5,224 bases of DNA from a virus (taxonomy: Duplodnaviria > Heunggongvirae > Uroviricota > Caudoviricetes). The position numbers and the translations under genes are program-made. Every line of letters begins with the position of its first letter. Within the stretch, counting starts at the first letter, position 1. Below are positions 3,891 to 3,977 of this stretch, one piece after another. The stretch lies in the IMG/VR virus record IMGVR_UViG_3300029476_000065, one strand, 5' to 3'. Under the pieces are notes generated by a model. It did not search any database and was not told where the DNA came from. It worked only from the letters and a program-made list of their open reading frames with translations.

Positions 3891-3977
3891 TGGCGGAGAG
3901 TAATGGAATCGAACCATCATCGCTTGCGCAATGGGACGGTTTTCAAGACCGCTTGAGCACCATGCTCCCTACTCTCC
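3891..3977 (-). tRNA. Type II tRNA-like gene, Ser (anticodon UGA)-like, with atypical D arm; possibly functional, possibly decaying
   Basis: Reverse complement (87 nt) folds with acceptor GGAGAGT/ACTCTCC, anticodon stem GCGGT/ACCGT and loop CTTGAAA (same loop as I recall for E. coli serT), a variable arm with 5-bp stem and GCAA tetraloop, T arm GATGG-TTCGATT-CCATT, discriminator G and encoded CCA. The D arm is non-canonical (3-nt linker, 4-bp stem GAGC/GCTC, 5-nt loop containing GG). Confidence 0.5.

Follow-up and report, generated by a model that had tools for sequence, protein, structure and literature searches.

A tRNA-Ser(UGA) with a predicted 8/4 cloverleaf in the tRNA block of a P1/D6-like phage-plasmid

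Transfer RNAs in which the acceptor and T stems comprise 8 and 4, or 9 and 3, base pairs (8/4 and 9/3 tRNAs) were recovered by Mukai et al. (2017; PMC5389517) as false positives of a tRNA-Sec covariance model. The main text of that paper describes them as bearing a Sec-like D arm, a long variable arm and G73 or U73; it reports (8/4) tRNA-Ser in bacteriophages and 8/4 allo-tRNAs that insert serine in E. coli. In the genome of phage rV5, tRNAscan gave five tRNAs, and a Ser tRNA was recovered by ARAGORN only (PMC3606486). Here we analyse a tRNA-Ser(UGA) gene in a stretch of 5,224 nucleotides (nt) of viral DNA (IMG/VR record IMGVR_UViG_3300029476_000065), hereafter the window. The window is 97.6-97.7% identical to E. 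coli phage-plasmids and phage D6 and ~91% identical to P7/P1 over the shared parts, and by these matches it is assigned to a P1/D6-like phage-plasmid. We conclude that the tRNA is real and, judging from its sequence, very probably functional, and that its odd shape appears to be that of a rare class of tRNAs already described, not an indication of decay.

ARAGORN calls a tRNA-Ser with the anticodon tga at exactly 3891-3977, the coordinates at which the initial annotation had placed a Ser-UGA-like type II tRNA; the strand, which that annotation did not give, is minus. Read 5' to 3', the RNA is GGAGAGUA GG GAGC AUGGU GCUC AA GCGGU CUUGAAA ACCGU CCC in its first part and AUUGC GCAA GCGAU G AUGG UUCGAUU CCAU UACUCUCC G CCA in the remainder. 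The acceptor, anticodon, variable (GCAA) and T arms, described initially as folding cleanly, are each present in the sequence, as is the encoded CCA (Table 1). The anticodon stem has 5 base pairs (bp), the next possible pair being A x C. In relatives (L011 and L086) the variable-arm stem carries a compensatory change from C-G to U-A, and in rV5 an A-U pair is replaced by G.U. The four T-stem pairs are 93% paired family-wide, and the G at 3918 forms a one-nucleotide connector (position 49).

The D arm had been described as non-canonical, with a 3-nt linker and a 5-nt loop. The loop and the non-canonical character hold, i.e. the alignment of the family gives four pairs backed by covariation and a 5-nt loop, in which the GG is invariant or nearly so. 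The 3-nt linker does not, as its first base, A8, is better placed, on the covariation given below, in an eighth acceptor pair. A fifth D-stem pair (A-U), leaving a 3-nt loop, is possible in the window copy and impossible in the Klebsiella-plasmid copy, while some relatives (e.g. Klebsiella phage Roth50) have a 5-bp D stem with a 4-nt loop. The arm is clearly more compact than that of canonical tRNA-Ser, yet it does not comprise 6 bp plus 4 nt.

The fold was assessed in a MAFFT alignment of 36 distinct family members, in which the pairs of the 8/4 fold and of the canonical 7/5 fold were counted. In this alignment 96.2% of cells (a count inflated by related sequences) are paired, versus 41-54% with slid partners; 13 of the 21 pairs show two-sided changes, and none of 500 shuffles reached the observed values. 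Together with the recurrence of the gene in relatives, this level of pairing argues that the Ser fold is not a chance match. In the 8/4 fold, alignment columns 8 and 82 (positions 8:65), neither of them constrained, hold A:U in 28 and G:C in 8 sequences, a two-sided change without a single unpaired case. In the 7/5 fold, columns 66 and 82 (positions 49:65) hold G.U in 27, G:C in 7 and A:U in one sequence, with one unpaired, and the changes are one-sided only.

Wider collections gave the same picture. IMG/VR was scanned with a search pattern in which position 8 and the 3' half of the T stem were unconstrained, and this yielded 102 distinct sequences with an intact acceptor stem, which fall into 64 canonical and 38 compact tRNAs. 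The canonical class has U8 and a D region of mostly 18 nt, whereas the compact class has A8 (28 sequences), G8 (8) or C8 (2) and a D region of 15-17 nt (16 nt in the window); G73 is found in 33 and CCA in 29 of the 38 compact sequences. In a second scan, comprising one genome per species, position 8 could be either purine and position 65 either pyrimidine; here the compact tRNAs had A:U in 12 cases, G:C in 10, A:C in one and G:U in none (Fisher p ~1e-5). Pooling of 58 distinct sequences gave 39 A:U, 18 G:C and one A:C, i.e. 57/58 Watson-Crick pairs at 8:65, and about ten independent switches are needed on a rough neighbour-joining tree constructed with both positions masked.

The alternative is a canonical 7/5 type II tRNA-Ser, in which A-G-G would form a 3-nt connector, the D loop would be short, G49.U65 would be a fifth T pair and A8 would remain unpaired. 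This is how ARAGORN draws the molecule, and a pair of G49 with U65 or C65 is possible in 54 of the 58 family members. The 7/5 fold leaves unexplained, however, why position 8 is never U in the compact class and why A and G at this position switch in step with U and C at position 65. In the canonical phage tRNA-Ser(UGA), moreover, 49:65 varies freely (C-G 22, G-C 27, A-U 6, U-A 4, U.G 5), yet position 49 is almost always G in the compact class, and in three compact sequences the base at 49 is unable to pair with C65 whereas G8 is able to do so. With the 5-bp variable stem, the 7/5 fold would also leave zero nucleotides between the variable arm and the T stem. We consider this fold unlikely, and it is likely that A8 pairs with the base just 3' of the T stem, forming the eighth acceptor pair of an 8/4 cloverleaf. 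Some points speak against this assignment. The nearest-neighbour energies of the two folds are equal (-29.6 kcal/mol for 8/4 and -29.5 kcal/mol for 7/5) and G49 is able to pair in most sequences, so that the 8/4 call depends on covariation, a strong but indirect kind of evidence; in addition, the collection patterns fixed GGAG..T.G, CTTGAAA and GGTTC.A.TCC, which makes those columns uninformative. Thermodynamics was rejected as an arbiter between the folds, given the equal energies and an unconstrained minimum free energy fold that is not a cloverleaf.

A BLAST search with the 87-nt tRNA-Ser sequence matched 383 phage and 577 plasmid records. Identity is 100% in P7 and in many plasmids, 98.9% in D6, ~90% in the rV5-like Vequintavirus phages (91 nt long), 87-90% in Klebsiella phage-plasmids of ~110 kb, and 73-78% in Klebsiella T5-like and T4-like phages and Acinetobacter Saclayvirus. 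Each of the 11 homologues examined is called tRNA-Ser(tga) by ARAGORN and has a compact D arm. The window copy differs from the Klebsiella-plasmid copy at nine positions, which make up three compensatory pairs (two in the acceptor stem and one in the D stem) and three unpaired bases; the tRNAs are 89.7% identical, a value that drops to 80.9% once the flanks are included. The Ser gene is under purifying selection, and there is no erosion in the window copy, in which all stems are intact and the GG, T loop, G73 and CCA are retained.

Predictors based on covariance models nevertheless handle this gene poorly. At relaxed thresholds the best Rfam match at the Ser locus is the tRNA-Sec model RF01852, with 43.5 bits against a gathering cut-off of 47. 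At gathering cut-offs Rfam reports nothing at the Ser locus, while the Asn, Thr and Tyr tRNAs are reported; it follows that the general tRNA model RF00005 scores below 29 bits there. Predictor scores under pseudogene thresholds, together with the lack of a transcript, had been named by the initial annotation as signs against the gene. Covariance-model scores do fall below the curated thresholds here (Rfam), and tRNAscan missed the rV5 copy and called no amino acid for that of D6, whereas ARAGORN calls the gene. The D6 record carries the note 'has apparent UGA Serine anticodon but AA not called by tRNAscan-SE', PGAP labels the gene tRNA-Ser in one plasmid and 'tRNA-OTHER' in another, and the P7 copy, which is identical to the window tRNA-Ser, is unannotated in both P7 records (NC_050152 / AF503408, 72257-72343). 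As a separate observation on these records, D6 RefSeq NC_050154 places three tRNA features (locus 4475-5180) on the strand opposite to that given by ARAGORN/PGAP and omits the CAU-anticodon tRNA-Ile2 at locus 3414-3489.

Such scores could indicate a decaying pseudogene, i.e. the last recognisable member of an eroding array that is out of translational use. The copies missed in rV5, left uncalled in D6 or labelled tRNA-OTHER would fit this explanation, and so would a degenerate tRNA-like element located 360 nt away and the stem mismatches present in some copies. On the other hand, the gene is fully conserved in P7 and many plasmids, the differences between lineages are compensatory or lie in unpaired bases, and the D-loop GG, the T loop, G73 and CCA are all retained. 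The odd features are moreover common to distant phages, with the compact form found in Acinetobacter phages, Klebsiella T4-like phages and actinobacterial elements. The low scores themselves are accounted for by the 8/4 architecture, because it is not represented in the models. A pseudogene is very improbable on this evidence, and the low scores appear to reflect a different cloverleaf and not decay. For annotation this means that a conserved and probably functional tRNA has been overlooked or left unnamed by covariance-model tools, owing to its 8/4 cloverleaf. The same gap is expected in many phage genomes, as the compact form makes up ~1/3 of the GGAG-type phage tRNA-Ser(UGA) scanned.

As to function, codon usage was compared between NZ_CP148392, a complete close relative (106 open reading frames (ORFs), 25,884 codons), and a 50-kb sample of E. 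coli K-12. UCA, the codon of tRNA-Ser(UGA), occurs at 13.2 per 1000 codons in the phage-plasmid and at 5.2 per 1000 in the E. coli sample, a 2.5-fold difference. The corresponding values are 15.9 and 5.6 per 1000 for ACA (tRNA-Thr(UGU)) and 12.4 and 2.4 per 1000 for AUA (tRNA-Ile2 with the anticodon CAU). This enrichment fits plain codon supplementation. We suggest that the gene probably encodes a working phage serine tRNA, built on an (8/4) cloverleaf, that raises the capacity for UCA decoding during phage gene expression. The tRNA would read UCA and, by wobble, probably UCG/UCU; since its anticodon loop is that of E. coli serT and the stem is near-identical, the same codons and probably the same loop modifications are to be expected.

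In the proposed sequence of events, the gene would be transcribed with its block from a C1-repressed promoter of the Pban type, located outside the window, upon lytic induction, and host RNases would process the transcript. Stacking of the 8-bp acceptor stem on the 4-bp T stem would keep the usual 12-bp helix, with a two-nucleotide connector, and the compact D arm would keep the GG required for T-loop docking. Charging by host SerRS would proceed through the variable arm and G73, as suggested by these identity elements and by the activity published for 8/4 allo-tRNAs in E. coli; with its 12-bp acceptor/T helix intact, the tRNA would then be carried by EF-Tu. The outcome would be more UCA decoding in phage gene expression, beside tRNA-Thr(UGU) for ACA and tRNA-Ile2 for AUA. 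Weighing against a working tRNA, the D6 copy has an A12C change that breaks a D-stem pair, and L011 has U31xU39 and A73, so not every copy need be active; the codon reference, furthermore, is only 50 kb of E. coli, and the genes were picked by a greedy ORF rule.

The main value of the gene could instead lie in counter-defence, an idea that is compatible with a working serine tRNA. The phage copy would then stand in for the host tRNA-Ser(UGA) when a system of the host or of a rival phage destroys or disables the latter, and an altered body (without U8 and with a compact D arm and an 8/4 helix) would make the phage tRNA a poor substrate of that system. Phage tRNAs have been shown to restore infection blocked by retron-Eco7 PtuAB (tRNA-Tyr) and by PARIS and PrrC (tRNA-Lys); a cleavage of tRNA-Asn and tRNA-Thr by PARIS, considered in addition, was dropped, as the PARIS paper shows tRNA-Lys only. 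Mycobacterial VapC toxins reportedly cleave tRNA-Ser within its anticodon. The same operon holds a Tad2-like anti-Thoeris gene and TerB, its array includes a tRNA-Tyr, and the share of the compact form among the scanned tRNAs is likewise in keeping with this idea. However, the literature searched contains no report of an E. coli defence aimed at tRNA-Ser(UGA). The anticodon loop equals that of serT and the stem nearly so, whereas nuclease-resistant phage tRNAs have changes in the anticodon loop instead, and codon enrichment is already a sufficient reason to carry the gene. We regard counter-defence as a possible but doubtful main role. Bacterial Schlafens, considered as cutters of type II tRNAs, were set aside, as tRNA-Ser goes unmentioned in the Schlafen paper.

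A bolder speculation is that the 8/4 body, without U8 and with a Sec-like D arm, is itself an adaptation that evades a host or rival-phage factor recognising the canonical type II core, while SerRS, EF-Tu and the ribosome still accept it. The evaded factor could be a tRNase, a tRNA nucleotidyltransferase toxin or a modification enzyme; in a stranger version, the tRNA may be a partial substrate of host SelA. We think this quite unlikely, but if it were true, the biological purpose of 8/4 tRNAs could be studied directly in culturable E. coli systems, namely P1, P7, D6 and rV5.

Finally, the element could be a tRNA-shaped RNA without a translational role, acting as a processing or stability signal of the polycistronic transcript or as a recombination hotspot that moves tRNA modules. 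Its setting among repeated long hairpins and the conserved ~90-nt trailer that moves with it between unrelated phages would suit such a role. A processing signal, however, would have no need for a conserved anticodon loop, GG and T-loop docking bases, G73 and CCA, and the serine anticodon matches a codon that is enriched in the element; this explanation is extremely improbable. As regards the trailer (window minus strand; rV5 locus 692-775), a core of ~65 nt is conserved in P1-like elements and rV5-like phages and is enclosed by a lineage-specific outer stem (AAGAGUAUUUGGC/GCCAAGUGCUCUU in the window, GUUGACC/GGUCAAC in rV5). It contains no conserved ORF. A covarying RNA at 3790-3890 was considered and rejected, as RNAalifold found no two-sided changes in five sequences.

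The gene had been presented as isolated, about 450 bp from the main tRNA array. The distance is accurate (454 nt to tRNA-Thr, 4432-4507), but the term is misleading. According to ARAGORN the window holds five tRNA genes, each on the minus strand, and tRNA-Ser is co-oriented with the other four and with tciA/tciB (Table 1). Together they make up one block, the counterpart of the C1-repressed Pban operon of P1/P7. The annotation of P1/P7, which supports the assignment of the downstream genes as well, gives the order of the homologous block as Pban/C1 operator, tRNA-Asn, tRNA-Thr, tciA, tciB, tRNA-Ile and ban.

Table 1. Positions of the tRNA-Ser gene, its structural parts and the neighbouring features in the window
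Feature	Position	Strand	Basis and remarks
tRNA-Ser(UGA) gene	3891-3977	-	87 nt with encoded CCA; ARAGORN; annotated in relatives; family alignment with covariation
Acceptor stem, 5' strand GGAGAGUA	3970-3977	-	8 nt; A8 = 3970; partner = 3895-3902
D arm, compact; stem GAGC/GCUC, loop AUGGU	3955-3967	-	two-sided compensatory changes in all 4 pairs
Anticodon arm GCGGU-CUUGAAA-ACCGU	3936-3952	-	anticodon UGA = 3943-3945; ARAGORN and alignment
Variable arm, long, AUUGC-GCAA-GCGAU	3919-3932	-	5-bp stem, GCAA loop; direct reading of sequence
T arm; 4-bp stem AUGG/CCAU, loop UUCGAUU	3903-3917	-	alignment helix 4; two-sided changes in two of four pairs
Acceptor stem, 3' strand UACUCUCC	3895-3902	-	all 8 pairs formed in 100% of cells; two-sided changes in 3 pairs
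Discriminator G73 and encoded CCA	3891-3894	-	direct reading of sequence
3' trailer moving along with tRNA-Ser	3802-3890	-	BLAST map and alignment; ~83% identity to rV5-like phages
tRNA-Asn(GUU)	4604-4678	-	upstream, same block; ARAGORN, Rfam
tRNA-Tyr(GUA)	4512-4598	-	upstream, same block; ARAGORN, Rfam
tRNA-Thr(UGU)	4432-4507	-	upstream, same block; ARAGORN, Rfam
tciA/TerB	3189-3644	-	downstream, same block; Pfam
tciB/DUF3927	3025-3189	-	downstream, same block; Pfam
tRNA-Ile2 (anticodon CAU)	2830-2905	-	downstream, same block; ARAGORN
Tad2-like (anti-Thoeris) gene	1801-2376	-	directly downstream of tRNA/tci block, where P1 has the ban helicase; Pfam
lpa (late promoter activator)	908-1300		after the Tad2-like gene

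Relatives differ in their tRNA content by whole modules. The array reads Asn-Thr-Ile2 in P1, Asn-Thr-Ser-Ile2 in P7 and D6, Asn-Tyr-Thr-Ser-Ile2 in the window, Arg-Tyr-Thr-Ser-Ile2 in pZ1323HEC0010-2, Asn-Ser in the Klebsiella plasmids, and Arg-Tyr-Ser-(uncallable tRNA-like)-Thr-Met-Pro in rV5. Relative to P1, P7 and D6, tRNA-Tyr sits inserted between Asn and Thr. According to BLAST, rV5 and the window share only the Ser tRNA with ~90 nt of its trailer (83%) and, separately, the Tyr tRNA (92%); the occurrence of these two modules in the unrelated rV5-like phages points to mosaic gain and loss. Where the others have Ser, P1 carries plp-upl on the other strand, and window positions 4089-4431 are homologous to the P1 plp region.

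The plus-strand ORF at 4171-4461 is a homologue of P1 plp, which is annotated as 'putative lipoprotein'; the ORF has an overlap of 30 nt with tRNA-Thr and runs antisense through a hairpin repeat. Its product is rich in Cys, Ser and Arg and has no Pfam match. As a real gene that would account for the spacer, this ORF is doubtful, given the missing Pfam match, the overlap with tRNA-Thr and the odd composition, and the P1 plp annotation may be spurious.

An inverted repeat (4108-4207) and a tRNA-like remnant (4335-4430) had been held to separate tRNA-Ser from the main array. Both are present, but they belong to one scattered family of long-hairpin repeats, which, read on the minus strand, occupies 4869-4965, 4335-4430, 4108-4207, ~3795-3880 and 2589-2645 and is interspersed among the tRNAs and genes of the operon. 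The repeat arms resemble CA(C/U)AAC(A/G)GG(U/A/C)AAGGG ... CCCUUACC(G/A)UUGUG (direct-repeat families D2-D4, inverted repeats I2 and I3), and the copy at 4335-4430 has a T-arm-like GGTTCGAATCC insert. These hairpins could be processing sites, stabilisers or recombination joints. The degenerate tRNA-like element at 4335-4430 adjoins tRNA-Thr and is called neither by Rfam nor by ARAGORN; only its 3' half, without the centre, occurs in the Klebsiella plasmids. It was rejected as a conserved structured RNA, as the T-arm-like centre is absent in P7. At rV5 locus 790-888, between the Ser trailer and tRNA-Thr, ARAGORN gives a 'tRNA-???' with a 4-base anticodon, i.e. a second degenerate tRNA-like element in a related array, which has no BLAST homology to the window remnant.

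The suggestion of an originally longer array that is being eroded is therefore doubtful at best, as the degenerate element beside tRNA-Thr speaks for it, and the module-wise mosaic and the intact Ser gene speak against it. The comparison indicates a mosaic array, in which tRNA modules are gained, lost and exchanged with other phages and which contains some degenerate tRNA-like debris, and not a simple decaying array.

Further features of the block deserve mention. Between tRNA-Ser and tciA (3661-3781, minus strand) lies a sub-threshold Rfam match to STnc100, a gammaproteobacterial small RNA (39.4 bits versus 47, E 3.7e-6, model positions 31-147 of 206), and a similar motif containing GGAGGCACC is present at 2492-2520, downstream of tRNA-Ile2. 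Upstream of tRNA-Asn (5145-5162, minus strand), a strong terminator-like hairpin precedes a run of T (GCCCATCTTCGGGTGGGC TTTTTT); in P1 this region bears the annotation of a dicF-like sequence. The tRNA-Tyr(GUA) likewise scores poorly on the general tRNA model (35.1 bits), its acceptor and D stems being separated by two additional bases, and shares 92% identity with the tRNA-Tyr of rV5, for which a Cove score of 43.9 is given. The closest complete phage-plasmid relative, NZ_CP148392.1, encodes its own glutamine--tRNA ligase (glnS, locus 23124-24785), an unusual cargo beside a tRNA array. Window bases 810-850 are masked as N.

Among described tRNAs, a canonical type II tRNA-Ser (RF00005) was rejected as the class of the window tRNA in view of A8 in place of U8, a D region of 16 versus 18 nt, the 5-nt loop and the score below 29 bits. 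The tRNA-Ser(UGA) of E. coli, serT, has an identical anticodon loop (CUUGAAA), four of five identical anticodon-stem pairs, G1-G2-A3, G73 and CCA, and is likewise a type II tRNA with a GNRA-type variable loop. It departs from the window tRNA in its U8, its D arm (3-bp stem, 11-nt loop) and its 7/5 fold, and two nucleotides separate its variable arm from its T stem. The tRNA-Ser of phage T4 (the psu1 suppressor tRNA gene) is similar in being a phage-encoded tRNA-Ser(UGA) located in a tRNA cluster; it was rejected as a biochemical precedent for the compact form, as it is canonical, with U8 and a long D loop. The trnS of rV5 (Vequintavirus) is much closer, with ~90% identity, the same 8/4 features and the common ~90-nt 3' trailer. 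It differs in its length of 91 nt, one more D-loop base and a longer variable arm, and it lies between tRNA-Tyr and tRNA-Thr in a lytic myovirus and not in a P1-type operon.

Bacterial tRNA-Sec (selC, RF01852) resembles the window tRNA in having an 8-bp acceptor stem, a long variable arm and G73, and SerRS presumably charges both; the small D loop and extended D stem of tRNA-Sec find a partial match in the compact D arm here. The two differ in the anticodon (UGA, reading UCA, in the window; UCA, reading the stop codon UGA, in tRNA-Sec) and in the acceptor and T helix, which has 12 bp (8/4) in the window and 13 bp (8/5) in tRNA-Sec. The D arm of the window tRNA, with four proven pairs and a 5-nt loop instead of 6 bp and 4 nt, is a further difference, and one that counts against a fully Sec-like body. 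An identity as tRNA-Sec was rejected on the grounds of the anticodon, the 12-bp helix and the match of 43.5 bits, below 47; the window holds no selenocysteine context.

The best agreement is with the (8/4) tRNA-Ser of Mukai et al. (PMC5389517), as presented in the main text of that paper. Common to both are the 12 bp formed by 8 acceptor and 4 T-stem pairs, the serine anticodon, G73 and the long variable arm, the location in a phage tRNA cluster and a match to the Sec model, here below threshold. The compact D arm recalls the Sec-like arm described there, but that arm has a long stem and a tetraloop and the one in the window has four covariation-backed pairs and a 5-nt loop. The window tRNA departs from the allo-tRNAs in its anticodon stem, which is 5 bp and not longer. 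With this stem and a serine anticodon, it is classed as an (8/4) tRNA-Ser and not as a recoding allo-tRNA in the strict sense. The window tRNA is thus a predicted member of an already described rare class, and the finding leaves the general understanding of phage tRNAs unchanged. The main text of Mukai et al. names marine and alpha-proteobacterial phages, proteobacteria and rumen Clostridia and makes no mention of coliphages or phage-plasmids. The (8/4) tRNA-Ser, so far known mainly from metagenomes, is present in the tractable coliphages and phage-plasmids P7, D6 and rV5, so that any benefit of the 8/4 shape beyond decoding becomes testable by simple genetics.

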